Shown here: positions 77 through 63,295 of the stretch, in pieces
Layout: every line of letters begins with the position of its first letter
How positions within the stretch are numbered: position 1 is the stretch's first letter
NCBI RefSeq assembly: GCF_004010195.1
Contig: NC_057718.1
Location: forward strand, 10,716,460-10,780,459
Source of the DNA: Chiloscyllium plagiosum
Taxonomy: Eukaryota
DNA length: 64,000 nt
Direction of reading: 5' to 3'
Position numbers and translations under genes: made by a program
The notes under the pieces: generated by a model
Told to the model about the DNA's origin: nothing
Databases searched by the model: none
The model's input: the letters and a program-made list of their open reading frames with translations, nothing else

Positions 77-573
77 CCCCCAACCCAGACAGACAAAGAC
101 CCACATGCACACATATATTTTGTGGGGTGAATTTGTACTTGCAGGGTTACATTGTACTGCATGCATTCATGTAGAACTCCGTTATCTCACTTTTTTAGAT
201 TAGAATCAATCTAAACATCATGGCATAGACAGAGAACACAGGAGGCCAACACCTTCAACATATTGTCTAGCTATCACCATTGTTAACAGCTAACCCGAGA
301 ATGCAACTGCTTTTTTTAAAAAGGTTTTGTGATTTTCACATGAAAGAAGTGAAACTATCACGGTATTCTAACAGATGAAAGGCTTAACAGACAATCAATT
401 TTTCAATGTATAATTTCAGTTGCGTCACACCATGAAATTTTGGTTCTAAATTCTGTATGTTATGATTGAGCCCTCCACTACCACCTGATGAAGGAGCGAC
501 GCTCCGAAAGCTAGTGTGCTTCCAATTAAACCTGTTGGACTATAACCTGGTGTGTGATTTTTAACTTTGTACA
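77..573 (+). mobile_element. 3' non-coding end / pseudo-LTR of a Penelope-like element (family B) with a hammerhead motif at 482-516
   Basis: Ends in cacCTGATGAaggagcgacgctccGAAAGCTAgtg...cctgttggactataacctggtgtgtgatttttaactttgt. Related sequence occurs on the minus strand at 25026-25745 and as short copies at 1503-1630 and 39340-39527. No coding part seen, so the PLE assignment is by analogy. Confidence 0.65.
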
Positions 574-659
574 CTTAGATGAAATCCTGCAGTGCTCATT
601 GGAACATACTTGAACCAACACCAGTCCCAGCTGCTTAATAGCCTACCTGTGGTTCACTG

Positions 660-1470
660 CAAAAATCAGGTTCAACTCCACCTCCGGGCGATTGTCTGTG
701 TGGAGTTTGCACATTCGCCCAGTGTCTGCATGGGTTTCCTCCCACAATCCAAATATGGGCAGGTTAGGTGAATTGGCCGTGCTAAATTGCCCACAGTGTT
801 CAGGGATGCGTAGGCTAGGTGCATTTAGTCAGGGCTAAATATAGGGTAGAGGAATAGGTCTGGTTGGGCTACTGTTTGGTGGGTCGTTTTTCCCCCCCCC
901 CCCCCCTCAGTCGAAGCAAAATGCTCAGAGATAAAGTGTAGTTTTACCCCCTTCATCTTTGTTCCGGGCTCTGGAGAGAGCGAGACAACGATTGCCCATG
1001 TGCAGACATGAGTTCACGGCCTTCTCTGAAAGAGCAGTTACTCAATGAACTATATAGTCACTCTACAGGGAGGAGCATCGGGATATGGGAACATACATAT
1101 TACTTGGGTGACTATTACAATCAACTAGTATCAATAGTAAAGATTAAGCCGTCTGCTGTTACACAATGATTAACTGACTTCACATAATGAATACTTTTCA
1201 CCTTGTTAACTGACATTACATACTGAATGCTACCTCATCTTGTAAAATGGCTCTATATAATGAATGTTTTTCAACCCATTACCCTTGTCTCCAGCACTCC
1301 ATTGTTCACTGGAAGTTCTTATCTGATCTGAATCATGCTCAGCTGAGCGTCGTGTTTCACAAAATTCAGAACTTAACTCCTTCCCTACCTACTTAAACCC
1401 CATACACATTCTCAGGGTCAGCGTGGACTTGTTGGGCCGAAGGGCCTATATCCACACAAGGGATTCTAAT
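660..1470 (+). mobile_element. HE1-type V-SINE split in two (about 660-885 and 1415-1470) by a 529-bp insertion
   Basis: V-SINE core tgtgtggagtttgcacattc...gggtttcctcccaca near 695-750. The tail gtggacttgttgggccgaagggcct resumes only after 1415. Confidence 0.8.
886..1414. mobile_element. Unclassified 529-bp insertion with gggtc direct repeats, possible solo LTR
   Basis: gggtc at 881-885 and 1415-1419 flank sequence that interrupts the SINE; right end is ...ttctCA. Confidence 0.5.
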
Positions 1471-1502
1471 TCGAGCTAAAGTTGCTGAATGATTTGTTGA
1501 CA

Positions 1503-1630
1503 TGATTTGGAGATGCCTGTGTTGGACTGGGGAGTACAAAGTCTAAAAATCACAGGTTATAGTCCAACAAGTTTAGTTGGAAGTACACAAGCTTTCGGAG
1601 CGCCGCTTCTTCATCGGGTGGGTGTGGACT
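1503..1630 (-). mobile_element. Short PLE pseudo-LTR fragment (family B), hammerhead core mutated
   Basis: Reverse complement reads cacccgatgaagaagcggcgctccgaaagcttgtg..., homologous to 482-573. Confidence 0.7.
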
Positions 1631-2254
1631 CACAATCACCCGATTTGATGGCCTCCCAATCAAACTATGCCTCCTTCAATCATGCAATGTTTTTGAAAAA
1701 GAGGCTGACTAAATTCAGAGATAATGCTTGTTGCTGTTGAAAATCAAATCTTGCATTTTAAAAAGTTCACCATTTTAATTTCTAGGAGGCTTGATATTTC
1801 ATCATTAGTCCCATGTGTACTTCACTCACTGTGAAACTTTCATTAGAAGTGACAATTTCAGTGCCTTTCATTCTCTATATTTATAACAGTGGTGACACTT
1901 CACCTCACAAGTAGAATAAGCCATTAAATTAGCTCTTGAACTAGTTGTCCGGTTCAAGTAGAATGCATTATTTGTTCATTTAGAGGCTACTGTCTGACAG
2001 GTAATCTGAGCATGATAAGCACATTAACTGGTGTGCATTGTCCATTTATTGTTGTCAATCCAATAATTCATACCTTTGTTTGAATGAATTTTGCTGGTAT
2101 GTGTTTTACAATTTCTGATTGTGCATCAGGAGGACCTTGCAACCAATACAGCACCAAATATACAAATGTCTGGGTTATTTTCATTGAAGGATGCCCAGCA
2201 CATTATTACATCAGAGTTGTGAGGTGAAATCATGAGTTTGTCTTTTGAAGTATT

Positions 2255-2480
2255 AATTATGATAGCACTCATTGTGCTCTCGCGTGTGAATCAGAAGGTT
2301 GAGAGTTCAGTTCCACTTCTTCAGATCAACACCTCTTGTGTAGCGCTGAGGGAATGTTTGAAGTCATCAGCTTTAAAATCATACATTAAACTGAGATCAT
2401 ATCTGCCTACTCAAATGGTTGCTGTGGGAAAACAATACAATACAAGAATATACTACAACAATGACTGCACTTCATAAATA
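2255..2480 (+). mobile_element. Old tRNA-derived SINE remnant (DeuSINE/SacSINE1-like)
   Basis: gaatcagaaggttgagagttcagttccact head followed by ...attaaactgagatcatatctgcctactca; loosely similar to 40370-40565 and 43050-43350. Confidence 0.45.
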
Positions 2481-2879
2481 ATTCTTCATTACAAAGAAGG
2501 GAGGATGGGTAAATTGAAAGTTCTTCCCTTCTGTCCATAATCATGTGATTTAGTTTTGAAAATGTAGATTGTGTAAGCTTTGGCAATAACAGAAGTGAAA
2601 CTTCACAAAGGAGTGCTGTTTGTGTCCAATCAAGGAAACCCCCACTTGTTATGACTTGACTTTGGAATTTTCTAGAAGCTTGATCATGAGTGCTGAATTA
2701 GAGAAGTTCATCTGATATACATTTCAACTCCTGTCACCACCAACTAAGCAATCATTTTGACAGTTTGTGTTTTTCAAAAAAATAATAAACACTCTAGCTT
2801 GACAATGAAATGCTTTGGGATTTGTTTTCATCACTTGTACAGTGTTTGTTGTCCATATCTAAATGCCTGGTGACCAGCT

Positions 2880-3470
2880 AAAAGTCAACTACTGTACTTT
2901 GCTGTGGGTCTACAGATACATATAAACCTGACCAGATAAGAATGGCAGATTTCCTTCCCTAAAGGACATTAAGTTTAACCAAATAATAGGTTGTTACAAC
3001 AATCAAGTGGCCAGGTTAGTCTTCCCATCCAGACTTTTATTAAATTTGTGGGCGGCACGGTGGCACAGTGGTTAGCACTGCTGCCTCACAGCGCCAGGGA
3101 TCCGGATTCAATTCCCGCCTCAGGCGACTGACTGTGTGGAGTTTGCACATTCTCCCCGTGTCTGCGTGGGTTTTCTCCGGGTGCTCCGGTTTCCTCCCAC
3201 ACTCCAAAAATGTGCAGATTAGGTGAATTGGCCACGCTAAATTGCCTGTAGTGTTAGGTGCAGGGGTAAATGTAGGGGAATGGGTCTGGGTGGGTGCGCT
3301 TCGGCGGGTCGGTGTGGACTTGTTGGGCCGAAGGGCCTGTTTCCACACTGTAAAGTAATCTAATCTAATCTAATTATCTACCATGATGGAATTTGAATCC
3401 ATGTCCCCACAACATTCACTTAGTGCTTTGGATTGCTAGTCCAGTGACATTGCCACTATGCCAGCTCCTC
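2880..3470 (-). mobile_element. Old SINE (family also at 29260-30510 and 53090-53520), interrupted by the HE1 at 3050-3373
   Basis: Reverse complement of 3375-3465 gives tggcatagtggcaatgtcactggactagcaatcca...ggacatggattcaaattcc. 2925-2970 matches the ctttagggaaggaaatctgcc segment of the other copies. Confidence 0.6.
3050..3373 (+). mobile_element. HE1-type V-SINE, full length
   Basis: tRNA-like head with A box (tggcacagtgg) and B-box-like ggattcaattccc, V core, LINE-derived tail, (aatct)n end. Confidence 0.92.
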
Positions 3471-4715: not shown

Positions 4716-4717
4716 CA

Positions 4718-5212: not shown

Positions 5213-5712
5213 NNNNNNNNNNNNNNNNNNNNNNNNNNNNNNNNNNNNNNNNNNNNNNNNNNNNNNNNNNNNNNNNNNNNNNNNNNNNNNNNNNNNNNNN
5301 NNNNNNNNNNNNNNNNNNNNNNNNNNNNNNNNNNNNNNNNNNNNNNNNNNNNNNNNNNNNNNNNNNNNNNNNNNNNNNNNNNNNNNNNNNNNNNNNNNNN
5401 NNNNNNNNNNNNNNNNNNNNNNNNNNNNNNNNNNNNNNNNNNNNNNNNNNNNNNNNNNNNNNNNNNNNNNNNNNNNNNNNNNNNNNNNNNNNNNNNNNNN
5501 NNNNNNNNNNNNNNNNNNNNNNNNNNNNNNNNNNNNNNNNNNNNNNNNNNNNNNNNNNNNNNNNNNNNNNNNNNNNNNNNNNNNNNNNNNNNNNNNNNNN
5601 NNNNNNNNNNNNNNNNNNNNNNNNNNNNNNNNNNNNNNNNNNNNNNNNNNNNNNNNNNNNNNNNNNNNNNNNNNNNNNNNNNNNNNNNNNNNNNNNNNNN
5701 NNNNNNNNNNNN
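5213..5712. other. Assembly gap (500 N)
   Basis: Run of N. Confidence 1.
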
Positions 5713-6289: not shown

Positions 6290-6375
6290 AAGAAGGGCTA
6301 ATGCCCGAAACGTCGATTCTCCTGTTCCCTAGATGCTGCCTGACCTGCTGCGCTTCTCCAGCAACACATTTCCAT
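6290..6375 (+). mobile_element. Truncated PLE pseudo-LTR (family A)
   Basis: agaagggctaatgcccgaaacgtcgattctcctgttccct...; 5' part of the hammerhead core missing. Confidence 0.8.
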
Positions 6376-8589: not shown

Positions 8590-9530
8590 GAAACCATAGA
8601 AACACACAAGATAGGAGTAGGAGGAGACTATTTGGCCCTTTTGAGCATGTTCTGCCATTCATCACAAACATGGCTGACTGTCCAATTCAGGAGCCTAATC
8701 CTTAGAGGATGCTTTCACTCCATAACCATGTGAGTGGGCAGCACGGTGGCACAGTGGTTAGCACTGCTGCCTCACAGCGCCAGAGACCCGGGTTCAATTC
8801 CCGACTCAGGCGACTGACTGTGTGGAGTTTGCACATTCTCCCCGTGTCTGCGTGGGTTTCCTCCGGGTGCTCCGGTTTCCTCCCACAGTCACAAAGATGT
8901 GCGGGTTAGGTGAATTGGCCATGCTAAATTGCCCATAGTGTTAGGTTAAAGGGGGTAAATGTAGGGGTATGGGTGGGTTGCGCTTCGGCGGGTCGGTGTG
9001 GACTTGTTGGGCCGAAGGGCCTGTTTCCGCACTGTAAGTAATCTAATCTAATCTAATAACCTTTGATTCCATTCGCCCTGAGTGTTATTATCTAGCTGCC
9101 TCTTGAATACATTGTGTTTTGGCATCAAGTACATCCTGAGGTAATAAATTCCACAGATTCACCACTCTTCAGATGAAGAAATGTCTCCTCATTTCTGTCC
9201 GAAATGGTCTACCCCAAATCCTCAGACTGTTCCCTGGTTTTGGACACACCCACCATCAGGAACATCCTCCCTGCATCTACCCTGTTGAGGCCTGTTGGAA
9301 TTTTATAAGTCTCTGTGATTTCCCTCCTCACTCGTCTGAACTCCAACAAAAACAATCCTAACCTAGTCAATCTCTCCTCATACATCAGTCCCGCCATTCC
9401 TGGAATCAGCCTGGTTAATCTTCGCTGCACTCCCTTGAGCAAAACCATCCTTACTTAGAAAAGTAAATCAAAACTGCAAACAATATTCTAGGTGTGCACT
9501 CCCCAAGACCCTGTATAACTGCAACTGCAC
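8590..9530 (-). mobile_element. CR1-clade LINE 3' fragment interrupted by HE1
   Basis: Minus-strand ORF GVQRRLTRLIPGMAGLMYEERLTRLGLFLLEFRR is the CR1 ORF2 C-terminus. Confidence 0.8.
8736..9056 (+). mobile_element. HE1-type V-SINE, full length
   Basis: Same consensus; B box ggttcaattccc; (aatct)n tail. Confidence 0.92.
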
Positions 9531-11560: not shown

Positions 11561-13580
11561 CATAGAACATTACAGCGCAGTACAGGCCCTTTGGTTCTCG
11601 ATGTTGCGCTGCCCTGTCATACTAATCTGAAGCCCATCCCACCTACACTATTCCATGTACGTCCATATGCCTGTCCAATGACGACTTAAATGCACTTAAA
11701 GTTGGCGAATCTACTACCGTTGCAGGCAAAGCATTCCATACCCTTACTACTCTGAGTAAAGAAACTACCTCTGACATCTGTCTTATACCTATCTCCTCTC
11801 ACTTTAAAGTTGTCCCCTCGTGCTTGCCGTCCCCATACTTGGAAAAAGGCTCTTCCTGTCCACCCTATCTAACCCTATCTTGTATGTCTCTATTAAGTCA
11901 CCTCTCAACCTTCTACTCTCTAATGAGAACAGCCTCAAGGCTCTCAGCTTTTCCTCATAAGACATTCCTTCCATACCAGGCAACATCCTAGTAAATCTCC
12001 TCTGCACTCTTTCCGAAGCTTCCACATCCTTCTTATAATGCGGTGACCAGAACTGTACACAATACTCCAAGTGTGGCCGTACCAGAGCTTTGTACAGCTG
12101 CAGCATAACCTCCTGCTTCTGGAACTCATCCCTCTATTAATAAGGCCAAAACACTCTATGCCTTCTTAACAACCCTGTCAATCTGGATGGCAACTTTCAG
12201 GGATCTGTGTACATGGACACCGAGATCTCTCTCCTCATCTGCACTCCCAAGAATCCTACCATTAGCCCAGTAATTTGCATTCTGATTACTCTGTCCAAAG
12301 TGTATCACTTCACACTTGTCCACATTAAACTCCACCTCTCAGCCCAGCTCTGCATCCTATCTATGTCTCTCTGCAACCTACTAAATCCTTCGTCGCTATC
12401 CACAACTCCACCAACCTTAGTGTTGTCCGCAAATTTACTCACCCACCCTTCTAAGCCCTCATCCAGGTCATTTATAAAAATGACGAACAGCAGTGGACCC
12501 AACACCGACCCTTGCGGTACGCCGCTAGTAACTGGACACCAAGATGAACATGTTCCATCAACTACAACCCTCTGTTTTCTTTCAGCAAGTCAATTAATGA
12601 TCCAAACTGCTATGTCTCCCACAATCCCATTTCTCTGCATTTTGTATAATACTGTGGGGAACCTTATTGAACGCCTTGCTGAAATCCATATACACCACAT
12701 CAACCAGTTCACTCTCATCGACCTGTTTGGTCACTTTGTCAAAAAAGTCAAGATACGTTAGGCACGACCTACCCTTCATAAAACCGTGCTGACTGTCCCT
12801 GATCGGATTATTCTTTTCTAGATGGTTATTAATCCTATCTCTTATAACTTTTTCCAACACTTTACCAACAACTGAAGTGAGACTCACTGGTTTGTAATTA
12901 CCAGGGTTGTCTCTACTACCCTTTTTGAACAAGGGAACCACATTTGCTATCCTCCAGTCCTCAGGCACTATTCCTGTAGACAATGATGATTTGAAGATCA
13001 ATGCCAAAGGCTCGGCAATCTCTTCCCTTGCTTCCCAGAGGATCCTAGGATAGATCCCATCTGGCCCAGGGGACTTGTCTATTTTCACACTCTGCAGTAT
13101 TTCTAATACCTCTTTCTTGTGAACCTTAATCTCTTCTAGTCTAGATGCAAGTATCTCTGTATCTTCCTCGCCAACATTTTCATTTTCTATAGTGAACACT
13201 GTCAAAATATTTATTTAGTGCTTCCCCTATCTCCTCTGACTCCAGACCCAACTTCCCACTATTATCCTTGATTGGCCCTAATTTAACTCTTGTCATTCTT
13301 TTATTCCTGACATACCTATGGGAAGCTTTAGGGTTAACCCTGATCCTATCCACCAACAACTTCTCATGTCTCTTTCTGGCTCTTCTGAGCTCTCTCTTTT
13401 TAGGTCTTTCCTGACTTCCTTGTAACCCTCAAGCGCCCTGAGTTTTCACATTTTGTCCTAACATAAGCCGCCGCCGCCTTCTTGACCATGGATTGCACTT
13501 CCTTAGTAAACCATAGCTCACACGTACTATATCTTCCTCCCTGCCTGATAGGTACATACTTATCTATGACACACAGGAGC
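11561..13580 (-). mobile_element. CR1-clade LINE, 5'-truncated, RT region with frameshifts
   Basis: Minus-strand ORFs: [79 protein letters not shown]. Confidence 0.93.
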
Positions 13581-17334: not shown

Positions 17335-17431
17335 AATCTGGATCAGTGGTGCTGGAAGAGCACAGCAGTTCAGGCAGCATCCAAGGAGCAGCGAAATCGA
17401 CGTTTCGGACAAAAGCCCTTCATCAGGAATC
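17335..17431 (-). mobile_element. PLE pseudo-LTR fragment (family A variant) with hammerhead core
   Basis: Reverse complement attcCTGATGAagggcttttgtccGAAACGTCgattt. Confidence 0.8.
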
Positions 17432-17895
17432 ATGGTGACCCATCAGCTACCTGGCTTTGAATTTTGGTTCTCTGCCGAATTGATCACTCACTCCAAGGGC
17501 AGATGTCTAAGGAAGGATGTGCTATGACAATTGGCCCTTGCTTCATTGGTCTTTTTTGAAAGAGGTAATGGAGGCTTTTCTACAACTACCCTTCTTGGTA
17601 GACCTCCTGTTTGCAGGAGGAAAGCAAATTAATTCAAATGTGCCAGATGTTTGAATCATGAATTTAACTTGGTACAACTGAATTCCAAAATAGCTGATGG
17701 TATAGCTGTGAGGTATTTGAATTGGTATTTTAAATTATTTTTTTCAAAAAAAATAACGTGTATTTTGGGCGTCAGTTCTATTAAAATCAGGAGGATTTCA
17801 CTTAGATGGAGAATCTTCAATGTTCACCATGTATCTCAAATTTCCATGGTTTCCATTCTTGGCTCTAAGCCAGGTGTTAGTCATTTATTGCAAAT

Positions 17896-18111
17896 TTTAT
17901 TGCTGGAACAGCACAGCAGGTCAGGCAGCATCCAGGGAACAGGAGATTCGACGTTTCGGGCACAGGCCCTTCTTCAGGAATCATTCCTGAAGAAGGGCCT
18001 GTGCCCGAAACGTCGAATCTCCTGTTCCCTGGATGCTGCCTGACCTGCTGTGCTGTTCCAGCAATAAAGTTTCAACTTTGATCTCCAGCATCTGCAGACC
18101 TCACTTTCTCC
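17896..18111. mobile_element. Palindromic mini-PLE (family A): two head-to-head pseudo-LTR copies, 15-bp TSD
   Basis: 17896-17981 is the exact reverse complement of 17983-18068; tcatttattgcaaat is duplicated at 17881-17895 and 18112-18126. Confidence 0.92.
17983..18018 (+). ncRNA. Predicted minimal type I hammerhead ribozyme (family A exemplar)
   Basis: attc-CTGAAGA-a-gggc(ctgt)gccc-GAAA-CGTC-gaat: core CUGANGA/GAAA, helix II gggc/gccc, helix I attc/gaat, palindromic ACGT in place of helix III, GUC triplet. Confidence 0.75.
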
Positions 18112-18904
18112 TCATTTATTGCAAATGGCAAGAAATGGGAATTATAAGCTTTGATCATGTTTAAGACATTGAGTAGCTACATATGGATGGACTAAGGTAA
18201 ATTCCAAAGTTGATGCCCAGTCTATGGTGATCCATTTTTCCAGTCCTAGTGTTGGACTGGAAGCTCAGGCACAGGCTTATATGATATCTGCAGCACAAAC
18301 AGGCCACTTGGTCCACAAGTCCATGTGCCATACGAGTCCCAATCTTCACTTTTGTTATATTTAACTGCATTAACACAGCTTATTTATTTTTCCATTGTAA
18401 GTTTATCCAGCTTCCTCCTAGCATAGATCTATCTACTTGCTTCCTTGCATTTTAAAACATTTCACTTTCTGGATCAGAGTTTCTCATGAATTTCTGCCTT
18501 TTCTTACTCCCCTACCCCATCGACCAATTTTAGCTGGACTAAGAAATTCATCAGTGGTTTGACACTCCTGTGATGGCATGTGTGTGTGTGCATCGTGGAT
18601 GATTGAGAGTCTTCTGACTTTGCCCAATTTTAAGTCCACTAGTGATTGGGAGTGTTCCCTTCCTCGAGTCCTCGACCTTGCTACAAGGTGAAACATTCTC
18701 TCAACATCCATTCTGTCAAACCTCTCAAAAGAAAGATCGCTTCTCATTCTTTAGTTAAATGAGAAAAGAGTACTTAGTATACCTCAAGCTAAGTAAACTA
18801 AGGCTGCAACTTCATCGATGTTATTGGTCTAATTTAATGCAACATAATGTAATTTAACAGATAAACATCACATTCATAGGACTTTAAATCTTTCCCTGTT
18901 ACCC

Positions 18905-19153
18905 TAAACCTAAGGGGTAACTTCTTCATGCAGAACATGGTGCATGTATGGAAGAACTGCTAGAGGAAGTGATGGAGACTGGAACAATCAGAACATTTAA
19001 AAAGGCATCCAACTGTGTGTATGAATATGAAGGGTTTAGAGCCATTATGGGCCAAATACTGACATGTGGGACTAGATTAATTTAGGATATCTGGTTGGCA
19101 TGAATGGGTTGGACGGAAGGGTCTGTCTCAATGCTGCACAGCTCTATGACTCT
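18905..19153 (+). mobile_element. CR1/HER1-type LINE 3' end
   Basis: Homologous to 48630-48880, ending ctctatgactct. Confidence 0.85.
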
Positions 19154-19934
19154 GATGTAAGAAGATTGAAAACCTTTCAAAACCGATAAGAAATGGGATT
19201 AAATAATTTTAAATGGTTTTAACCAATTTAACCACTATTTTATGGGAAGGTTTATTAAGACTGCAATTTTAATTGAAAATTGTGGAACAGTTTTATACCG
19301 TGCTTTAGCCCATGAAAGGTGCATAAGTAAGTGATCATCTTCACGTGGAAAAAAGGGCACTTTCATCTTGCTGCAGAAAGTGAGAAATCGCCATCTTCAT
19401 CATAGAAGGACAGAAGATCCCCTATTGGCATTGCTGTTTTGCAGAATTTAAAGCTTTACAAGAAAAATACTATATTGCTTTATTGCAGAGTTTAAAAGTT
19501 TGTGATAAAGAAAATAATTGCTATTTATGGAAATCTTTCAAAGAGAAAGCCTATAACTTCATTGACTTAGTTAAGGGTTAAAAGATTTAATTCCAAAAAT
19601 ACTGAAGTATTTAGATATTGTAGAATGTAATAACTTTTAAACGAAGAATAAATAATCACTTTAGGAAGACATGCAGGGTGGAATTGGACATCTTGGAGAA
19701 AGCAGTTTTTAGGATACAGCATGCTTCAAACTTAAATCATAAACTGTACAAGTAAATGCATTATTCAACTGAACCAACAGTGGATATTAGGCAATTAATA
19801 CAAGCGAAGACAAATATATTTTTGGATAAATTCTAAAAGCTATTATCAGGTTAATCCTTTGTAGAATTTATGACTATAAAGTTTTTAATTAATAAGAGAC
19901 AATCTTGATTTGGAATTAGAGCCCCAGAGAGAGA

Positions 19935-21010
19935 CAGCCTGGCAACAGATGCTTTGGTCCATCTTATCCATGCTAACCAGATATCCAGTCCCATTTGCCA
20001 GCATTTGGACCACATCACTCTAAATTGTTCCTATTCATAAGCCCTCATTCCTGATAAAGGACTTATATCTGCAATGTTGATTCTTCTGCTCTTCAGATGC
20101 TGCCTGACCAGCTGTGCTTTTGTTTTTAGCATCACGGTCTTCAACTCTTATCTCCAGCATCTGCAGTACTTACTTTCTCCCTATTCCTATCCAGATGCCT
20201 TTTAAATGTTGTAACTGTGCCAACCTCCACCACTTCCTCTGGCAGCTCATTCCATACACACACACGCCCTCTGCATGAAAACGTTGCCCCTTCGGTCTCT
20301 TTTATATCTTTCCCCTCTCACCCTCAACCTATGCCCTCTAGTTCTGGACTCTCCCCACCCCAGGGAAAAGACCTTGTCTATTTATCCTATCCATGTCCCT
20401 CATGATTTTATAAACCTCTGAGGTCACCCTCTGTCTCCAATGCTCCAAGGAAAATAGTTCCAGTCTAATCAACCTCTCCCTAGAGCTCAAACCCTCCAAC
20501 CCTGGCAACATCCTGGTAAGTCTTTTCTAAAGTCTTTTTTCAGCACTGTCCCCATGACTTGTCCGGACTTGTTCTACCTGCCTATGTCCTTTTCCACCTA
20601 TCCACTCCACCCTCTCCTCCCTGACCTATCACCTTCATCCCCTCCCCCACTCACCCATTGTACTCTATGCTACTTTCTCCCCACCCCCACCCTCTTCTAG
20701 CTTATCTCTCCACGCTTCAGGATCACTGCCTTTATTCCTGATGAAGGGCTTTTGCCCGAAACGTCGATTTTGAAGCTCCTTGGATGCTGCCTGAACTGCT
20801 GTGCTCTTCCAGCACCACTAATCCAGAATCTGGTTTCCAGCATCTGCAGTCATTGTTTTTACCTCTTTTCTAAACCCTTTCAAGTTTCACAACATCTTGT
20901 AGCAGGGAGACCAGAATTGCACGTGGTATTCCTATAGTGGCCTAGCCAATATCTTGTACAGTTGCAACATGACCTCCCAATTCCTATACTCAATACACTG
21001 ACCAATAAAG
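19935..21010 (-). mobile_element. CR1/HER1-type 3' fragment with two nested PLE pseudo-LTR inserts (about 20040-20180 and 20535-20863)
   Basis: CR1 sequence resumes after each insert; tcttttctaaa repeated at 20521 and 20864; hammerhead core CTGATGA at 20738 and GAAACGTC at 20758. Confidence 0.8.
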
Positions 21011-21676
21011 TTCTTGTCACATATACAAGCCAAAAGAAGATTTTACTTTGATAGTGCTCTTCAACTTGTGTTGCTGAAAACAGACACCAAGATGACAAAC
21101 TCCTGAGAGGAGGACAAACTTATTACAGTAGAGTAACAAAAGCTACCCCCATTATGATGCATAACACCTGTGACACGTGAGAAATCAATACTGAGGGGAG
21201 GTCAAACAATGGATACTGAGAACACTGGAACAAAGAAACCCTCACAGGCACAGACAGTGCCCTGTTGCAAAAAAAGAATGCTTCATCTGTAAAACAATAA
21301 ATCACTTCCAGAAAATGTGCTGAAAATGCAGGTTCAGAGTAGCAAAGAGTGAAATGCGTTCTCATACAAATGTGTTTATACAATAAACTATATAATACCT
21401 GAGACATTCCAAGGAGAAACTGGAGAAAGCCTCTATATTCTTATGGTAGTGTGACAACCAGAACTGTACACAATGTTGAAATGTGGCCTAACTGAAGTTA
21501 TATACAGCTACAACATGACTTGCTAACGTTTATACTCTATGCCCAACTGATGAAAGCAAGCATGCCATATACCTTCTTGATCACCTTATCCCGTGTTGTC
21601 ACTTTCAGGGAACTGTGGACCTGTACACCTCAATCCTTCCTGCATTAGACCTTCCGAAGTGCACTTCCTCACCTTT

Positions 21677-23470
21677 GGGAGAAAGTGAGGACTGCGGATG
21701 CTGGAGATCAGAATCAAGAGTGAGGTGCTGGAAAAGCACAGCTGGTTAGGCAGCATCCAAGGAGCAGGAGAATCAACGTTTTGGGCATAAGCCCTTCATC
21801 AGGAATGAGGCTTGTGGGCCAGGGCGCTGAGAGATAAATGGGAGGAGAGTGGGGCTGGCGGGAAGGTAGCTAGGAATGTGATAGGTAAATGAGGGGGGGA
21901 AAGGTGATAGGTCAGAGAGGAGGGTGGAGCAGATAGAAATCTTTTGGCATCATAGAATCCCAAAGTGTGGAAGCAGGCCTTTCAGACCAACAAGTCCACA
22001 CCGACCCTCTGAAGAGTAATCCACCCAGACCCATTCCCCAACCTATTACTCTACATTTACCCCTGACTAATGCACATAACCTACACATCCCTGAACGCTG
22101 TGGACAATTTAGCATAGCCAATTCACCTAACTTGCACATATTTGGATTGTGAGAGGAAACCATATTACCTGGAAGAAACCCATGCAGATGCGGAGAGAAT
22201 GTGCAAACTCCACACAGACTCCACACATTCCAGAGGCTGGAATCAAACCTGGGTCCCTGGCACTATGAGACAGCAGTGCTAACCACTGAACCACCGTGCC
22301 AGATAGGTGGGAAAGAAGATGGACAGATGAAAAAGGCGGTGCTGCGTTGGAGGCTTGGGACTGAGATAAAGTGGGGAGGAGGGGAAAATGAGGAAATTGG
22401 TGATATCCACATTGATCACGTGTGGTTGCAGGGTCCCAAAGCAGAACATGAGGCATTCTTCCTCCAGGTGTCAGATGGTTAGGGTTTGGTGATGGAGGAG
22501 GCCCAGGACCTGCATGTTCTTGGTGGAATGGGAGAAGGAGTTAAAATGTTCAGCCACAGTGCAGTGAGGTTGGTTGGTGCTGGTGTCCAAGAGATGTTCT
22601 CTGAAATGATCCGCAAGTTGGCATCATGCCTCCCTGATGCAGAGGAGACTACATTGGGTGGAACAGATACAGTAGACGATGTGTGTGGAAGTACAAGTAA
22701 ATTTCTGTTGGATGTGGAAGGATCTTCTTGGGTCTAGGACAGAGGTGAGAGAGGAGATGTGGCACAGGTTTTGCACTTCCTGCGGTGGCATAGGAAGGTG
22801 CTGGGAGTGGGGTGTGGGCTGGTTGGGGTCATGAATCTGACAAGAGAGTCGCGGAGGGAATGGTCTCTCCGAAACACAGGGTGGAGAGGGATATAAATCC
22901 CTAGTAGTGGGATCTGTTTGTAGGTGGCGGAAGTGGCAGAGGATGATGCAATGTATCTGGAGGTTGGTGGGATGGAAGGTGAGGATCAGGGGGTTCTGTT
23001 GTTGTTGTGATTGGAGGTGTGGGGTTCAAGGGTGGATCTGCGGGAAGTGGAGGTGATGCACTGGAGGGCATCATCGACCATGTGGGAGGGGAAATTGCAG
23101 TCTTTGAAGAAGGAGGCCATCTGGCATGTTCTATGGTGGAATTGGTCCTCCTGGGGCAGAGGAAATCAGAACAAGGGATGGCATTTTTACAGGAGGCAGG
23201 GTGGGAGGTGGTGTCATCTAGGTAGCTGTGGGAGTCAGTGGGTTTGTAGTAGATGTCTGTGGTTAGTTGGTAGCCGGAGATGGAGATGGAGAGGTCCAGG
23301 AAGGGGAGCGAGGTGTCAGAGATGGTTCAGGTGAATTTGAGGTTGGGGTGAAAGGTATTAGTGAATTTGATGAACTATTCACTCTCATTGTGGAAGCACA
23401 AGGAAGCGCCAATACAGTCATTGATGTAGCAGAGGAAAAGGTGGGGAATGGTGCTGGTGTAGCTGTGAAA
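21677..23470 (-). mobile_element. Penelope-like element (RT C-terminal half, GIY-YIG region, family A pseudo-LTR), decayed, with HE1 insert
   Basis: Minus-strand sequence is homologous to 33700-34081 and 41300-42300; pseudo-LTR with hammerhead-like core at about 21677-21810. Confidence 0.85.
21952..22300 (-). mobile_element. HE1-type V-SINE nested in the PLE
   Basis: Reverse complement of the HE1 consensus. Confidence 0.88.
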
Positions 23471-24009
23471 GATTTGACCTCACATTTGTTCAGACTAAAT
23501 GCCATCTACCATTTCTCCATCCAAGTCTTCTGTCTATCTATATCTTGCTGTATCCTCAAAAAATCCTCACTATCTACAGCTCCCCTAAGCTTTGTGTCAT
23601 CCACAAACTTATTACTCAGACTATCAACCTTCTCCTCTAAAACATTTATGTATATTACAAACATCAGGAGTCCCAGCACTGATCCCTACAGAACATCACG
23701 GTCACAGATCTCAAGTGAGAAAATCACTCTTCCATTGCTACTGTCTACCTTCTATGCCCAAGCCAGTTCTGTATCCATCTTACCAGCTCACCATGAATCC
23801 CATTTGACTTCACTCTCTTTGTCAGCCTGCCATGAGGAACCTTGTCAAAGACCTTGCAAAAGTCCATGTAGACCATATCCACTGCCCTGCCCTTCATCAA
23901 TTACCTTTGTCACTTACTCAAAAAACTCAAAGAAGATTATGAGACAAGATCTCTCTCACCCAAAGCCATGCTGCCTGTTGCTAACAAGTCCATATTTTCC
24001 AGTTTTTAA

Positions 24010-24400
24010 ATTTTGTGGGATGTGGTCATTGCTGGCAGGCCAGCATTTATTGCCCATCCCTAGTTGCCCTTGAGAAGGTGCTGGTGAGTCGTCTTCTTGA
24101 ACCGCTGCAGTCCACCTGCTGTGGGTTGACCCACAATGCCATTAGGGAGGGAGTTCCAGGATTTTGTCCCAGCGACAGTGAAGGAATAGTGACATACTTC
24201 CAAGTCAGGATAGTGATGACTTGGAAGGGAACTTGAAGGTTGTGATGTTCCCATATATCTGCTAGCCTTGCCCTTTTAGATGGTCATGGGTTTGGAAGGT
24301 GCTGTCTGAGGATCTTTGGTGAATTTCTGCAGTGCACCTTGTAGATAGTACACACTACTGCAACTGAGCATCAGTGGAGCAGGGAGTGAATGCTTGTCCA
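24010..24400 (-). mobile_element. 3' end of a second LINE family (CR1/L2 group)
   Basis: Minus-strand ORF SFTVAGTKSWNSLPNGIVG...LQRFKK; tail gggatgggcaataaatgctggcc; related copy at 44590-44840. Confidence 0.7.
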
Positions 24401-25745: not shown

Positions 25746-25749
25746 TGTC

Positions 25750-26200: not shown

Positions 26201-26209
26201 AAATATATC

Positions 26210-35502: not shown

Positions 35503-35605
35503 AACTATTGCTTTATTACCTGGAGCTCACGTGGAATTTATTGTCACATGTACCAAGGCACAGTGAAAAGCTTTGTCTTGTGAGTAATACAGGTTGTCCA
35601 CATAG

Positions 35606-43350: not shown

Positions 43351-44110
43351 ATGGTTATAGGAGGGAAGGAGGCCATTCAGTCCCTCCCTTCCATACCAGC
43401 TATTAGTTAAGCTAGTCGCATTCCTTTGTCATTTCCTCGTAGCCCTTTCTTTCTCTTCAGATAATTATCTATCCTCTTTCGAAAGTCACATTTGATTGCT
43501 GTTTCCACTTTTCTCTCAGTAGTCCATAGCAGATTTGAAAAGTGTGGCACTACAAAAGCAGGGCAGGTCAGCAGCATCCAAGGAGCAGGAAAGTCAGGAA
43601 TGAAGGGCTTATGCCCGAAACATCGACTCTCCTGCTCCTTGAATGCTGCTTGACCTCCTGTGCTTTTGCAGCTCCATTGTTTTTGACTCTGGTCTCCAGC
43701 ATCTGCAGTCCTCATTTTCTCCTGGACCATAGCAGATCCCAACTAAATGATGTGTGATTTTTATTTTTGATTTTGCCTTTAGATTGTTTTGCCTTTCAAC
43801 TGTGCACTTTGATTCTTGACAGTGACCTACCTGACAATCAGCCATGGGATAAGTTTCTCCCTATTTACTCTGTCCAGATCCCTAATGATTCTGAATACAT
43901 TCATTAAATCTCCTCTCAAATCTCTCTTCTCAAAGGAGAACAGGCGCAACTTCTCTAATCCAGCCATATAACTGAAGTCCGTCATCCCTGGAAATATTCT
44001 TGTAGATCTTTTTTTCATACTCTATAATACTTCACATTCTGAGAAAGTGTGATACATAGAATTTGACAATACTCCGATCAGGCCTTATCAGGTTTTTCTT
44101 ATAAAGATCC
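43350..44110 (-). mobile_element. Decayed CR1 3' fragment with a palindromic family A mini-PLE at about 43535-43722
   Basis: ORF LEKLRLFSFEKRDLRGDL; ccatagcagat repeated at about 43524 and 43727 around the insert. Confidence 0.75.
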
Positions 44111-45960: not shown

Positions 45961-48881
45961 AAGAGTGAGGAAAGAGATCGATCTGAGACGGCTACAGTTG
46001 AGAACAGAAGCGAGTCAAACAGTCAGGGCAGGCAGGGACAAGGTAGGACTTATAAATTAAACTGCATTTATTTCAATGCAAGAGGCCTAACAGGGAAGGC
46101 AGATGAACTCAGGGCATGGTTAGGAACATGGGACTAGGATATCATAGCAATTACAGAAACACTGCTCAGGGATGGGCAGGACTAGCAGCTTAATGTTCCA
46201 GGATACAAATGCTACAAGAAGGATAGAAAGGGAGGCAAGAGACGTCGGGGAGTGGCAGTTTTGATAAGGGATCGCAATACAGCTGTGCTGAGGGAGGATA
46301 TCCTGGAAATACATCCAGGGAAGTTATTTGGGTGGAACTGAGAAATAAGAAAGGGATGATCACCTTATTGGGATTGTATTATAGACCCCCTAATAGTCAG
46401 AGGGAAATTGAGAAACAAACTTGTAAGGAGATCTCAGCTATCTGTAAGAATAATAGGGTGGTTATGGTAGGGAAAACATAGATTGGGACTGCCATAGTGT
46501 TAAAGGTTTACATGGAGTGGAATTTGTTAAGTGTGTACAAGATAATTTTCTGATTCAGTACGTAGATGTACCTACGAGAGAAGGTGCAAAACCTGACCTA
46601 CTCTTGGGAAATAAGGCAGGGCAGGTGACTGAGGTGTTAGTAGGGGAGCATTTTGGGGCCAGCGACCATAATTCTATTCGTTTTAAAATAGTGATGGAAA
46701 TGGATAGACCAGATCTAAAAGTTGCAGTTCTAAACTGGAAAAAAGCCAATTTTGACGGTACTAGGCAAGAACTTTCGAAAGATGGTTGGGGCAGGTGTTC
46801 ACAGGTAAAGGGACAGCTGGAAAATGGGAAGCCTTCAGAAATGAGATAACAAGAATCCAGAGAAATTATATTCCTGTTCGGGTGAAAGGAAAGGCTGGTA
46901 GGCATAGGGAATGCTGGATGACTAAAGAAATTGAGGGTTTGGTTAAGAAAAAGAAGGAAACATATGTCAGGTATAGACAGGATTGATCGAGTAAATCCTT
47001 AGAGTATAAAGGAAGTAGGAGTATACTTAAGAGGGATATCAGGAGGGCAAAACGGGGACATGAGATAGCCTTGGCAAATAGAATTAAGGAGAATCCAATG
47101 GGTTTTTACAAATATATTAAGGACAAAAGGGTAACTAGGGAGAGAATAGGGCCCCTCAAAGATCAGCATGGAGGCCTTTTTGTGGAGCCACAGAAAATGG
47201 GGGAGATACTAAATGAGTATTTTGCATCAGTATTTACCGTGGAAAAGGAAATGGAAGATATAGACTGTAGGGAAATAAATGGTGACATCTTGCAAAATGT
47301 CCAGATTACAGAGGAGGAAGTGCTGGATGTCTTGAAACAGGTAAAAGGGGGTAAATCCCCAGGATCTGATCAGATGGACCTGAGAACTCTGTGGGAAGCT
47401 AGAGAAGTGATTGCTGGGCCTCTTGCTGAGATATTTGTATCATCGATAGTCACAGGTGAGGTGCCGGAGGACTGGAGGTTGGCTAACTTGGTGCCACTAT
47501 TTAAAAAGGGTGGTAAGGAGAAGCCAGGGAACTATAGGCCAGTGAGCATGACCTCGGTGGTGGGCAAGTTGTTCGAGGGAATCCTGAGGGACAAGATGTA
47601 CATGTATTTGGAAAGGCAAGGACTGATTAGGGATAGTCAACATGGCTTTGTGCGTGGGAAATCATGTCTCACAAACTTGACTGAGTTTTTTGAAGAAGTA
47701 ACAAAGAGGATTGATGAGGGCAGAGTGTTAGATGAGATCTATGAGTCTCCCATGGGAGACTGATTAGCAAGGTTAGATCTCACAGAATACAGGGATAACT
47801 AGCCATTTGAATACAGAATTGGCACAAAGGTAGAAGACAGAGGATGATGGTGGAGGGTTGTTTTTCAGACTGGAGGCCTGTGACCAGTGGAGTGCCACAA
47901 GGATTGGTGCAGGGTCCTCTACTTGTTGTCATTTACATAAATGATTTGGATGCGAGCATAAGAGGTACAGTTAGTAAGTTTGCAGATGACACCAAAATTG
48001 GAGGTGTAGTGGATAACGAAGAGGGTTACCTCAGATTACAACAGGATCTTGACCAGATGGGCCAATGGGCTCAGAAGTGGCAGATGGAATTTAATTCAGA
48101 TAAATGCGAGATGCTGCATTTTGGGAAAGCAATCTTAGCAGGACCAATGCACTTAATGGTAAGGGAGTGTTGCTGAACAAAGAGACCTTGGAATGCAGGT
48201 TCATAGCTCCTTGAAAGTGGAGTCGCAGGTAGATAGGATAGTGAAGAAGGCGTTTGGTATGCTTTCTTTTATTGGTCAGAATATTGAGTACAGGAGTCAG
48301 GATGTCATGTTGCGGCTGTACAGGACATTAGTTAGGCCACTGTTGGAATATTGCATGCAATTTTGGTCTCCTTCCTATCGGAAAGATGTGAAACTTGAAA
48401 GGGTTCAGAAAGAATTTATAAGGATGTTGCCAAGATTGGAGGATTTGAGCTATAGGGAGAGGCTGAACAGGCTGGTGCTGTTTTCCCTGGAGCATCGGAG
48501 GCTGAGGGGTGACCTATAGATTTTCACAAAATTATGAGGGGCGTGGATAGGATAAATAGGCAAAGTCTTTTCCCTGGGGTCAGGGAGTCCAGAACTAGAG
48601 GGCATAGTTTTCGGGTGAGATATAAAAGAGACCTACGGGGCAACTTTTTCACACAGAGGGTGGAACATGTATGGAATGAGCTGCCACAGGAAGTGGTGGA
48701 GGCTGGTACAATTGCAACATTTAAGAGGCATTTGGATGGGTATATGAATAGGAAGGGTTTGGAGGGATATGGGCTGTGTGCTGGCAGGTGGGACTAGATT
48801 GGGTTGTGATATCTGGTCGGCATGGATGGGTTGGACTGAAGAGTCTGTTTCCATGTTGTACATCTTTATGACTCTATGACT
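45961..48881 (+). mobile_element. CR1/HER1-type LINE with nearly complete but inactivated ORF2 (AP endonuclease and RT) and 3' tail
   Basis: LNCIYFNARGL...IIAITET and SDHN (endonuclease), QHGFVRGKSCLTNL, SGVPQG, SKFADDTKIGG (RT); multiple stops and frameshifts; ends (gactctat)n. Confidence 0.95.
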
Positions 48882-49149
48882 ATAACCTGATGTTGAGTGA
48901 TTTTTAAAATTTGTGTAATAGACAGAATGTCTTTCTGCTTTAATGGTAGCATCCTTTCCTTAGTGTCTGTTGTTCTTTAGTTTTTAGCAGAAATGCAGTT
49001 GCAAACATTTGAGCATCACTACTCATTGTGCTAGTCTGTCTTTCTTTCCTTTTTGAATCAGCACTCTTGCAATAGAGATGCATTGTATTAATTCTAATTA
49101 TATCAATGTAGAACATGATTTTTTTTGTCCTGTTGATATGTCCTTAATA

Positions 49150-50039: not shown

Positions 50040-50227
50040 CAAAGTTTGTGAGAAGAATTGTAGCTTGGGTGCTCGTTGTTGTGGTTCTGTTCGCCGAGCT
50101 GGGAATTTGTGTTGTAGACATTTCGTCCCCTGTCTAGGTGACATCCTCAGTGCTTAGGAGGCTCCCAAGCACTGAGGATGTCACCTAGACAGGGGACAAA
50201 ACGTCTGCAACACAAATTCCCAGCTCG
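50040..50227. mobile_element. Palindromic mini-PLE (family C), 12-bp TSD
   Basis: 50094-50158 inverts to 50163-50227; gtttctcaaact at 50028-50039 and 50228-50239; CTGAGGA-helix II-GAAA/AAAA motif on each arm. Confidence 0.88.
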
Positions 50228-50670
50228 GTTTCTCAAACTGTTTTCCAATGTGACCTCGTTTATAACTGGGTGAGAATGTTAGTTGTATCAAACAAAGCAT
50301 GTGACCCAAAAGCTTAAGCCTGGGGACCTGATCATCTCTCCCACCCAACTCCCACTGAAGTCCTGAACAAATCCTTCCAACCTCCGTCTCCCTTCCAAAA
50401 ATATAACAAGTACGAAAATATTTGATCTATACAATTATCGTTGTATAGTTCATGTGATCATGATCATTTGTATGAATTATAGAAATTAAATTAATACTTC
50501 TTAGTAGTCTTCTGGCATCACCTCTCAATCCATATTTTAGTTAATTAAAAAAAACCAAACTGTTTCACGTGGTGTACTTTAGGATGTTGAGTCTCGGCGC
50601 TATATAAACGTAAGTCCGCCGCTCGTCCATTGCCGAAAATTGCCGATGCTTCGCGCGCTTAGCGGAAATA

Positions 50671-60916: not shown

Positions 60917-61186
60917 TGGCATGGTGGCACAGTGGTTAGCACTGCTGCCTCACAGCGCCAGGGACCTGGGTTCAATTCCCGCCTCAGGCAACTGTCTGTG
61001 TGGAGTTTGCACATTCTCCCCGTGTCTGCGTGGGTTTCCTCCGGGTGCTCTGGTTTCCTCCCACAGTCCAAAAATGTGCAAGTTAGGTGAATTGGCCATG
61101 CTAAATTGCCCATAGTGTTAGGTAAAAGGGTAAATGTAGGGGTATGAGTCTGGGTGGATTGTTTCTACACTGTAAGTAATCTAATC
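60917..61186 (+). mobile_element. HE1-type V-SINE with a tail deletion
   Basis: Consensus head and core. Confidence 0.92.
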
Positions 61187-61385
61187 TCCAGCTTCCATAG
61201 TATTTTACTTTTGTTTTGTACACAAATTTTCTCTAATTACAATCTCGCAGCTTCCATAGTCACTTTTCTACTCCCAGATCTCACATCATCAGACTTGTTA
61301 AATACAGTTTGCTTCAAATCTTGACCTTTAGGTTGTTTTAAACTACTTGCTCACTATACCCCGCAGCAGAAAGATTCTTTAGCAA

Positions 61386-61672
61386 GATTTAGATTAGATT
61401 ACTTAGTGTGGAAACAGGCCCTTCGGCCCAACAAGTCCATACCGACCCTCTGAAGAGCAACCCACCCAGACCCATTACATTTACCCCTTCACCTAACACT
61501 ACAAGCAATTTAGCATGGCCAATTCGCCTAACCTGCACATTTTTGGACTGTGGGAGGAAACCCACTCCGACATGGGGGGAATGTGCAAACTCCACACAGA
61601 CTGTTGCCTGAGGCGGGAATTGAACCCGGGTCTCTGGCGCTGTGAGGCAGCAGTGCTAGCCACCGTGCCGCT
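61386..61672 (-). mobile_element. HE1-type V-SINE
   Basis: Reverse complement of the consensus with a core deletion. Confidence 0.92.
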
Positions 61673-62621
61673 ACCTGAAATAAAAACAGAAAGCTAATAT
61701 CATTCAGCAAAGAGGCATGTCACCTCTCCAGTCTCTGACCTCGATTTTCCACTTTTGCCTTAGGAAAGTTAGGGCTGAATAATAAGCATTTTATTTACAT
61801 AACCCATGTACCAGGAACATTTTTTAAAAAAAAGATCTTCCGGCATCTATAGCACTGTTATGCAACACCTAGAACAAAGTACTACAGGATCAATACTCTT
61901 AACATTTTCAGTACATCGTCACAAGCGAGTCAAGGAGAAAGTTTATATTTGTGAACAAGAGCTTTTTCACTATCACTGCTATTGTCTGGTGTGTCATGAC
62001 ATTATCTGTTCTGAGACTCAGCTCCACAAGGAATATCAGTTTGATATTCATCAAGGTTATCCATTTTAATCTGTGCACTTCAGCATGTGTGCACGTAAGT
62101 GGATGTTGTCATAAATAAACCCAGTTCAAAATCCACACTTGCCTTTTGTCCAGGCACACCAAGAAAAGTATGCTCAGCACAGTTGAAGAATTGAAGATGA
62201 GACTTTCCTGGGTTATATGGCTCCCAGAACATGGGTGGATTTACCCATTAGTTTGCCAAGTATGGTCTGAATTACACCATGTAAAGGCTACAAATTGAGC
62301 CTGGCACCATTCCTAAAATAAAACCACCAAAGATTGCTCATAAGAAGAAAAAAAGACAACATTCTTGTTCATTTCCACTAAACCTTTGTTTCTCCTCTAC
62401 AGTTTTATAACAAAAATTAATTATAGCTTCCATGATGCAGGTTGCATGTTATCAGCTTTTCATGCACCACCCAGTTAGCCATTTGATGTGGGTACTGGGT
62501 GAATGTAAAAATATTCTATTGTAGAGGTATCAAACTGAGCCTGTTTGTTACCAGATCCATGGATAGCAAAGTTTTCCAGTTGAGATTGTTGGACACCAAA
62601 AAGAAGGAAGCACATGTCATT

Positions 62622-62933
62622 GGGCAGCACGGTGGCACAGTGGTTAGCACTGCTGCCTCACAGCGCCAGGGACCCGGGTTCAATTCCCGCCTCAGTCGAC
62701 TGACTGTGTGGAGTTTGCACATTCTCCCCGTGTCTGCGTGGGTTTCCTCCGGGTGCTCCGGTTTCCTCCCACAGTCCAAAGATGTGCGGGTCAGGTGAAT
62801 TGGCCATTCTAAATTGCTCGTAGTGTTAGGTAAGGGGTAAATGTAGGGGTATGGGTGGTTTGCGCTTTGGCGGGGCGGTGTGGGCTTGTTGGGCCGAAGG
62901 ACCTGTTTCCACACTGTAAAGTAATCTAATCTA
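62622..62933 (+). mobile_element. HE1-type V-SINE, full length
   Basis: Consensus head, core and tail. Confidence 0.92.
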
Positions 62934-62946
62934 AACCATAAGTATT

Positions 62947-63295
62947 CAAAGTTTGTACGAAGATTTGTAGCTTGGGTGCTCGTTGTTGTGGTTCTGTTCG
63001 CCGAGCTGGAAGTTTTTGTTGCATTAGCCCTGATTCTATTGAATGGTGGAGCAAGCTCAACGAGTTGAACAGCCTATTTCTGTTTTTATTTCTTATGGTC
63101 TTATCGATTCCAACAATTTCCTAACATCACACGTTAATCTAACCGGAAGCGGCAGGGACAGACCACTATAAACATCGGAGGAAACATCAAAGAAGCGCTT
63201 CGCAGGAGGCTCCCAAGCACTGATGATGTCGCCTAGCCAGGGGACGAAACGTTTGCAACAAAAACTTCCAGCTCGGCGAACAGAACCACAACAAC
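62947..63295 (+). mobile_element. Family C PLE pseudo-LTR insertion with an inverted 5' segment and a hammerhead motif at 63217-63256
   Basis: aaccataagtatt at 62934-62946 and 63293-63305; 62982-63023 inverts to 63254-63295; gcaCTGATGAtgtcgcctagccaggggacGAAACGTTtgc. Confidence 0.85.

Follow-up and report, generated by a model that had tools for sequence, protein, structure and literature searches.

Minimal hammerhead ribozymes (min-HHRs) of metazoan genomes were described by Cervera and De la Pena in 2014 (PMC4209133), and that paper already contains their architecture, the proposal that they act as dimers, their link to Penelope-like elements (PLEs), and their occurrence as dispersed single copies and as opposite-strand pairs. 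Four features were named there against a chance origin of the motif, the one-nucleotide spacer, the palindrome and the G10.1-C11.1 pair among them. For PLEs in general, the passages of Craig et al. 2021 drawn on here give as hallmarks heavy 5' truncation, a 5'-truncated copy in inverted orientation at the 5' end of an insertion, a hammerhead near the 3' end, and a tail of 30-40 bp that is often found at one end only. For an anole PLE, the parts of Frangieh et al. 2024 (PMC11167929) used in this study report that reverse transcription begins inside the RNA, at two neighbouring sites shortly after the hammerhead, and that both DNA strands are cut and extended. This study concerns three repeat families, called A, B and C, in a 64,000-nucleotide stretch of the 3.56-Gb genome of Chiloscyllium plagiosum (C9:10716460-10780459; this whole stretch is called the window, and positions are those within it), together with loci fetched from elsewhere in the genome (L numbers). 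The reading that best fits the data, to which we give a probability of roughly 0.78, is that all three families are min-HHR motifs near PLE 3' ends, families C and B being the 3' ends of two autonomous PLE lineages and family A an abundant short non-coding carrier of the same module. Almost every copy in the window is a product of insertion that was dead on arrival or has since decayed, and not a working ribozyme; such products never had any need to cut.

A preliminary description of the window had read the repeats as minimal hammerheads of the Penelope type, and this agrees point by point with the architecture in PMC4209133. The motifs that it quoted were found as written at 482-516 (family B), 17983-18018 (family A) and 63217-63256 (family C), all on the plus strand, and the cuts predicted after 513 (CUA), 18014 (GUC) and 63253 (GUU) are correct deductions from the motif. 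All sites that it cited carry the motif, but copies with intact cores on the minus strand at 17395-17430, 17945-17982 and 32527-32562 had been overlooked. At two of the cited sites, 20734 and 26551, the core is intact but helix I has a U.U mismatch (ATTC...GATT), and for this reason both fail the 3-bp rule of the descriptor used here. That descriptor, written after the motifs were known, consists of helix I of at least 3 bp, CUGANGA, zero or one extra nucleotide, helix II of at least 3 bp, GAAA, a palindromic A-N-N'-U, an H that is not G, and the second strand of helix I. It has six matches in the window, at 482, 17983, 36263, 36506 and 63217 on the plus strand and at 17945-17982 on the minus strand, versus none in each of 300 dinucleotide-preserving shuffles. 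Copies of the three families are scattered densely over the window. A looser descriptor (0-2 extra nucleotides, a helix III palindrome of 2-8 nucleotides, and a variant core at U3/A8) returned the same six matches and added none. All six have CUGANGA, GAAA and a NUH triplet whose H is not G, namely GUC in family A, CUA in B and GUU in C. Helix II is closed by G10.1-C11.1 in family A (GGGC/GCCC), B (GGAGC/GCUCC) and C (GUC/GAC), a pair that the descriptor does not require. The motif has no helix III hairpin; a 15.1-16.1 palindrome, ACGU or AGCU, stands in its place. By hand count about 29 copies in the window retain at least part of the motif, and in 10 of these (eight A, one B, one C) the core boxes, helix II and the palindrome are all intact. 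Over 345 kb, comprising the window and the fetched loci, a generic descriptor gave 104 matches that belong to families A, B and C only. Exactly one extra nucleotide follows CUGANGA in 103 of the 104 (0-2 were allowed), and all 104 have a 4-nt palindrome, that is, a 2-nt insert (2-8 nt were allowed). It should be noted that this sample is not neutral, since the loci were picked through the family patterns and include both targeted fetches and bystander copies within them. Helix I measures 3-5 bp in the strict matches, and the min-HHR criterion is about 4-5 bp.

Core patterns searched across the whole genome with at most one mismatch found near-exact cores at 151,586 places for family A, 40,450 for family B and 11,046 for family C, versus 0 with the reversed-pattern control of each family; a longer exact family A pattern occurs at 67,058 places. 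One 3.56-Gb genome therefore holds about 200,000 near-intact hammerhead cores, far more than the few thousand per vertebrate genome of the founding paper (PMC4209133). The families are probably shared with a related species, because contigs of a run labelled as another organism (organism A, run X1) cover the repeat copies at window 17400-33900 at a likeness of at least 93%.

The link to PLEs drawn in the preliminary description is supported for family C, in which a PLE-type open reading frame (ORF) ends inside the motif; it is partly borne out for family B, through one long copy, and for family A it is suggested by insertion hallmarks only. In all six intact family C frames inspected (L070, L075, L078, L080, L083 and L084) the stop codon of the ORF lies inside the hammerhead. 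Three of these frames stop at the UGA of the CUGAUGA box and the other three at a loop II codon, TAG or TAA. A 385-amino-acid version of this ORF is 56% identical over 285 amino acids to the C-terminal part of a 705-amino-acid protein, in which Pfam finds RVT_1 and a sub-threshold GIY-YIG domain. Proteins related to the family C ORF likewise carry RVT_1 and GIY-YIG domains, the latter above the cut-off in one of four scanned. The ORF of L075 extends into the reverse transcriptase region, and below-cut-off GIY-YIG matches fall at the same position in four of six family C ORFs scanned. By tblastn, homology to PLE proteins was present on either strand in 29 of 30 loci taken by the family C pattern (L040-L069), and at almost no family B or A locus. 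A first look at the genome gave 75,736 candidates for the family C ORF; a Pfam GIY-YIG survey, in which 150 of 14,402 candidates were scored, gave one weak match. A further frame was observed in family C: the AUG within the CUGAUGA box opens a frame that runs through the tail (63223-63297 in the window, and in the same six L070, L075, L078, L080, L083 and L084 copies), and it is open only to the end of these short copies. In family B, the motif of the long copy L087 is preceded on its own strand, at a distance of about 590 nt, by homology to the GIY-YIG region (E 3e-9 to 3e-5). Because of this endonuclease homology upstream of the motif, family B would belong to a second PLE lineage, distinct from that of family C.

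The way in which the copies are inserted points in the same direction. The 5' ends of 30 family B and 30 family C copies scatter from -2 to -609, and the 3' ends form two groups in each family: 16 at +74 to +92 and 10 at +113 to +118 in family C, 17 at +81 to +102 and 9 at +120 to +133 in family B, and about +82 and +125 in family A. The two groups are about 35-40 nt apart in all three families, and the motif has a fixed position, 40-95 nt before the 3' end of the copies. When neighbours less than 2 kb apart were tallied in the first 100 places listed per family, they were head-to-head in 9 (A), 9 (B) and 19 (C) cases and convergent in 1, 2 and 1. Same-strand neighbours, which partial tandems or pseudo-long terminal repeats (pseudo-LTRs) would provide, were few (1, 1 and 3). 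Head-to-head pairs in the window lie at 17892-18112, 32433-32649, 35956-36392, 39342-39513, 50075-50228 and 62982-63295; in the first two of these a 3' extension of about 40 nt is present on one arm only. Self-inverted arms occur in the fetched loci as well. These properties of families A, B and C agree with the PLE hallmarks in the passages of Craig et al. 2021 cited above. The 62982-63023 inverted arm begins exactly where family C is predicted to be cut, which was taken to be a coincidence because other family C inverted arms have scattered starts (for example -209, +15, -91 and +41).

Family A is non-coding and about 130-365 nt long, without an ORF. The claim of the preliminary description that the motifs occur mostly as short non-coding units thus holds for this family. 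Counted from the CUGA box, copies begin at about -4, -103 or -240 and end at about +82 or +125. The 5' end is sharp: 64 of the 74 family A copies that span the motif start within 14 nt of the CUGA box, most of them at -3 or -4, which is the 5' strand of helix I (e.g. 17983, 36263, L001, L004 and L006). Families B and C have no such pile-up of 5' ends at helix I, and their truncation is spread smoothly. Candidate causes of the sharp end are a transcript start, source copies that were themselves truncated there, or the joining of two full-length cDNAs during head-to-head insertion. The 3' end of family A has no A-rich or simple-repeat sequence, and no Rfam match to tRNA, 5S or 7SL overlapped any family A copy in the window at E values up to 10.

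Constraint on the hammerhead was examined in 56 unique family A copies, a modest and partly motif-selected sample. Majority sequences of the CTGT (8 copies), TTAT (13) and TTTT (17) subfamilies were compared instead of single copies, because dead copies decay neutrally. Pairwise comparison of these majority sequences finds 8, 18 and 20 differences over the 64 tail positions and none over the 23 constrained positions (core 12, helix II 8, helix III 2, extra nucleotide 1), where about 7 changes would be expected at the tail rate of about 30%. Differences within the motif are confined to N7, loop II and one helix I base. The preliminary description had held that its reading would fall if the motif were conserved no better than the flanking repeat; in the family A subfamilies it is conserved better. 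This shows, so far as sequence comparison goes, that the hammerhead was constrained in the lineages that gave rise to these subfamilies. Family C variants (CUGAGGA, changed loop bases, and GUC for GUU) also vary at free positions only. The third pair of helix I was U.U in 79 of the first 100 listed family A copies with exact cores, U-A in 16, A-U in 5 and A.A in none, and all 16 U-A copies belong to the subfamily with a CTGT or ATGT loop. Both derived states, U-A and A-U, would restore a pair, which is telling, although the sample is small. The preliminary description had also written of covariation among the three families. The shared architecture is there, but covariation in the strict sense cannot be claimed between A, B and C because the families are unalignable outside the core.

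By analogy with the systems above, a mechanism can be proposed. Reverse transcription by the PLE protein would begin within the RNA, a short way past the hammerhead, which would give two alternative 3' ends and the "tail", and the protein would cut and extend both DNA strands, giving head-to-head inverted pairs with 5' truncation. In active tandem source transcripts, two hammerheads may pair through the ACGU or AGCU palindrome to form helix III, after which each would cut behind its NUH triplet; such dimer action was proposed for min-HHRs by Cervera and De la Pena 2014 (PMC4209133). In the bare motifs of family A (17983 and 36506) and family B, the minimum-energy fold consists of helix I and helix II. 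When two copies were co-folded with ViennaRNA, swapped duplexes resulted, from which little can be learned about the dimer.

Several observations weigh against this interpretation. The bare motifs at 20734 (TTTT subfamily) and of family C favour a competing fold, and with flanking sequence helix I is absent from the minimum-energy fold in all five motifs tested. Helix I of family A (C-G, U-A, U.U, A-U) has the U.U third pair in the 79 of 100 copies given above. No hammerhead match was returned by Rfam (cmscan at the gathering score and at E up to 10, over the whole window and over short stretches around the A and B motifs), which may be because the motif has no helix III hairpin. Rfam hammerhead models expect such a hairpin. 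On the protein side, Pfam scores for GIY-YIG on ORFs of this genome stay below the cut-off (13.7-17.2 vs 22.6 bits), and no full-length element was seen: the candidate in L086, for which a 1,105-amino-acid open frame is listed, reads N over 2,585 bases (774-3358), a run that covers the expected reverse transcriptase part of a family C element. Family A lacks any link to an ORF, and its PLE assignment comes from the insertion hallmarks alone. Its 5' ends are not enriched at the predicted cut site (4 of 103 within 4 nt). Raw poly(A) single-cell RNA reads (X19), a library type poorly suited to cut ends, had no excess of molecule starts or ends at any place in the window, cut sites included; the repeats were covered about equally on both strands in these reads. 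Published min-HHRs cleave poorly in vitro (PMC4209133). In the sections of Frangieh et al. 2024 (PMC11167929) used here, hammerhead mutants of the anole PLE insert normally in vitro and no RNA sequencing reads end at the cut site, and the cited passages of Craig et al. 2021 state that PLE clades without hammerheads proliferate well.

The points on cleavage, namely the unchanged insertion of the anole mutants and the lack of RNA ends at their cut site, the low activity of min-HHRs in vitro, the want of a read-end pile-up in the window, the family A 5' ends and the weak family A helix I, would suit a different explanation, in which the motif is kept as a recognition module for the PLE protein, or as a passenger parasitising PLEs, with no useful self-cleavage in vivo, its likeness to a hammerhead being an inherited relic. 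That hammerheads are mere parasites of PLEs was suggested in the same passages of Craig et al. 2021. However, three families with unrelated flanks and two ORF lineages all keep the catalytic nucleotides, G10.1-C11.1 and the palindrome at 15.2/16.2, and change in family A is confined to the positions that a hammerhead tolerates (N7, loop II and helix I). In addition, the anole motif does cleave in vitro, and its C3G/G8C double mutant partly regains activity, according to the same sections of PMC11167929. This explanation is held to be unlikely, at odds of about one in five in our judgement. A further alternative is a chance origin of the matches from a short degenerate pattern. The pattern was indeed written with the motifs already known, and no more than about 11 bases of the core are fixed; nevertheless, the shuffles gave 0 matches against 6 observed, and the reversed-pattern controls gave 0 against 11,046 to 151,586, by which chance is refuted and its probability is practically nil.

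Two other explanations concern family A only. It might be retrozyme-like, spreading by way of small circular RNAs that arise when the hammerhead cuts and ligates, and not a truncated PLE tail at all. Family A is short and non-coding, its copies start so often at the 5' edge of the hammerhead (64 of 74), and a derivation of animal retrozymes from PLE pseudo-LTRs is argued in the part of the Li et al. 2026 preprint considered here, all of which would suit that idea. Retrozymes, however, are tandem arrays, whereas family A has one same-strand pair against nine head-to-head pairs within 2 kb among its first 100 listed places, and its copies run from the start of the hammerhead to 50-95 nt past the predicted cut site instead of from cut to cut, which makes this explanation improbable; nor was a circular junction seen, although no search was aimed at one. 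Still more improbable is that family A is an ordinary short interspersed element (SINE) mobilised by a long interspersed element (LINE), with a fortuitous likeness to a hammerhead. The very high copy number, the short units and the LINE-type reverse transcriptase fragments in the window would fit a SINE. The absence of any tRNA, 5S or 7SL match, a 3' end that is neither A-rich nor a simple repeat, the PLE hallmarks (a pair of 3' ends separated by about 40 nt, and many head-to-head pairs), and a pattern of constraint that tracks the hammerhead do not. With family A taken as a carrier of the PLE module, a more specific proposal can be offered, tentatively and as a possibility rather than an expectation: that it is a minimal, SINE-like parasite of PLEs, consisting mostly of a complete min-HHR and the region in which reverse transcription starts, present in several hundred thousand or more copies, and with a hammerhead selected in vivo. 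Such a selected role is proposed because the constrained positions were kept while the tail drifted by about 30%, and because most copies start at the 5' strand of helix I. If true, the hammerhead would have a role in PLE-type retrotransposition, be it RNA processing, definition of an RNA end or recognition by a protein, that did not come to light in the published in vitro insertion assay, and this genome would be a natural mutational record of that role.

The individual copies in the window are as follows. The intact family B hammerhead at 482-516 on the plus strand (CAC CUGAUGA A GGAGC-GAC-GCUCC GAAA GCUA GUG, predicted cut after 513) is contained in a copy at 439-574 (+), a 5'-truncated PLE 3' end that is homologous over this stretch to other family B copies. 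A second family B copy at 1534-1628 (-) has a decayed core (CCGAUGA), and both cores are decayed in the head-to-head family B pair at 39342-39513. The family A hammerhead at 17395-17430 (-) belongs to the TTTT subfamily and has an intact core, one G.U in helix II and helix I ATTC/GATT. It is followed by a head-to-head family A pair, in which the inverted arm at 17892-17982 (-) has an intact hammerhead (17945-17982) and the short 3' end, and the unit at 17983-18112 (+), of the CTGT subfamily, has its hammerhead at 17983-18018 (predicted cut after 18014) and a tail with the long 3' end. Intact cores with the U.U mismatch in helix I are found at 20734-20769 (+), a TTTT-subfamily motif in an element spanning about 20634-20833, and at 26551-26586 (+), a motif with the loop TCAG in a long copy that begins at about 26329. 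In the head-to-head family A pair at 32433-32649, the minus arm (32433-32562) has an intact hammerhead at 32527-32562 and a long tail, and the plus arm (32563-32649) is 5'-truncated within the core. A long family A copy at about 36027-36392 (+), with an intact hammerhead at 36263-36298, abuts at its 5' end an inverted 5'-truncated arm; the whole occupies 35956-36392, and copy and arm together form a palindrome at 35956-36097. The family A hammerhead at 36506-36541 (+) is of the TTAT subfamily and has a 4-bp helix I (AATC/GATT). The 36263 motif precedes it by 243 nt on the same strand, and these two are the sole pair of intact motifs in the window that could be joined in one transcript as a dimer.

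Coding remnants of a PLE GIY-YIG endonuclease, on both strands at 29560-30162, adjoin a decayed family C-like hammerhead at about 30276-30316 (+). The head-to-head family C pair at 50075-50228 is of the CUGAGGA variant and both of its members are decayed, one by ACGU to AUGU and the other by GAAA to AAAA. The family C hammerhead at 63217-63256 (+, predicted cut after 63253) is followed by its tail to 63295, and the inverted arm of this insertion at 62982-63023 (-) consists of tail only and is 100% identical to 63254-63295. Near-perfect hairpins at 35956-36097, 32499-32618, 43545-43666 and 50121-50201 score on many Rfam microRNA models, below the gathering scores; microRNA genes were rejected for them, because each is a junction at which family A or C copies meet head-to-head. 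The repeats described here thus explain the many perfect hairpins of the window that resemble microRNA precursors to these models. RVT_1 fragments of other retroelements are present at 12594-13214 (-), 36892-37236 (-) and 46987-48176 (+), and no link between these and the hammerhead families was seen. At least two more abundant repeat families without a hammerhead adjoin the family A copy at 36027-36392 (35300-35956) and recur across the window and the loci, e.g. at 718-886, 3188-3368, 8874-9051 and 48536-48883. Apart from the run in L086 (774-3358), runs of N are located at 5213-5712 and 34082-34470 of the window and at 1-602 of L082.

Compared with the metazoan PLE min-HHRs of PMC4209133, the motifs of this study are alike in being type I without a helix III loop, with a palindrome at 15.2-16.2, one unpaired base between 9 and 10.1, G10.1-C11.1 and, in the strict matches, a short helix I. 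The genomic setting is also similar: a genome has several consensus families, most copies are dispersed singly, and opposite-strand pairs lie 100-700 bp apart. The differences lie in the copy number, which is far above the figures given there, roughly 4,000 for coelacanth and 9,000 for Xenopus, in the mismatched helix I of most family A copies, and in the host and the sequence families. The main text of PMC4209133 and two of its three supplement files contain no term for sharks or other cartilaginous fish, and no published description of families A-C was found in the literature on hammerhead ribozymes, Penelope, SINEs and sharks or elasmobranchs, a comparison outside of which the set of Lunse 2017 falls. 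In the portion of the Li et al. 2026 preprint considered here, tandem retrozymes were looked for in a single chondrichthyan genome.

The anole Poseidon element PAc, as presented in the sections of PMC11167929 used here, resembles the present families in having a hammerhead shortly upstream of the 3' ends of its genomic copies and two 3' ends 30-40 nt apart, and its insertion by way of both strands suits the head-to-head pairs. The ORF of PAc starts in the hammerhead, as does the frame opened by the box AUG in family C. In family C, which is known here from sequence alone, the preceding ORF also ends inside the motif, unlike in PAc, and family C would for that reason be almost without a pseudo-LTR. 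Animal non-LTR retrozymes (PMC7229834, and Li et al. 2026, in the parts drawn on) are likewise short non-coding hammerhead elements thought to depend on PLE proteins; however, they form tandem arrays, have canonical type I hammerheads and give rise to circular RNAs, whereas family A is dispersed, single or head-to-head, and has the minimal motif. The small hammerheads of Lunse, Weinberg and Breaker 2017, as summarised in the passages used from a review (PMC6765202), share the reduced stem III, the PLE association and the dimer action. The same passages of that review describe the schistosome Sm-alpha and Sj-alpha elements, which like family A are short, abundant, non-coding retroposons with a type I hammerhead. 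Family A itself has a minimal motif and no recognisable small-RNA head. In this it differs from Sm-alpha and Sj-alpha, which have canonical hammerheads with loop-loop contacts, a helix III hairpin and a promoter region. Since the kind of motif is already established, the main value of this work is correct annotation: this is a known kind of motif in new sequence families, and what is notable is its scale and its very successful minimal non-coding derivative. Family A, which has a whole hammerhead, little else, and a sharp 5' end at helix I, bears on the role of the hammerhead for PLEs.

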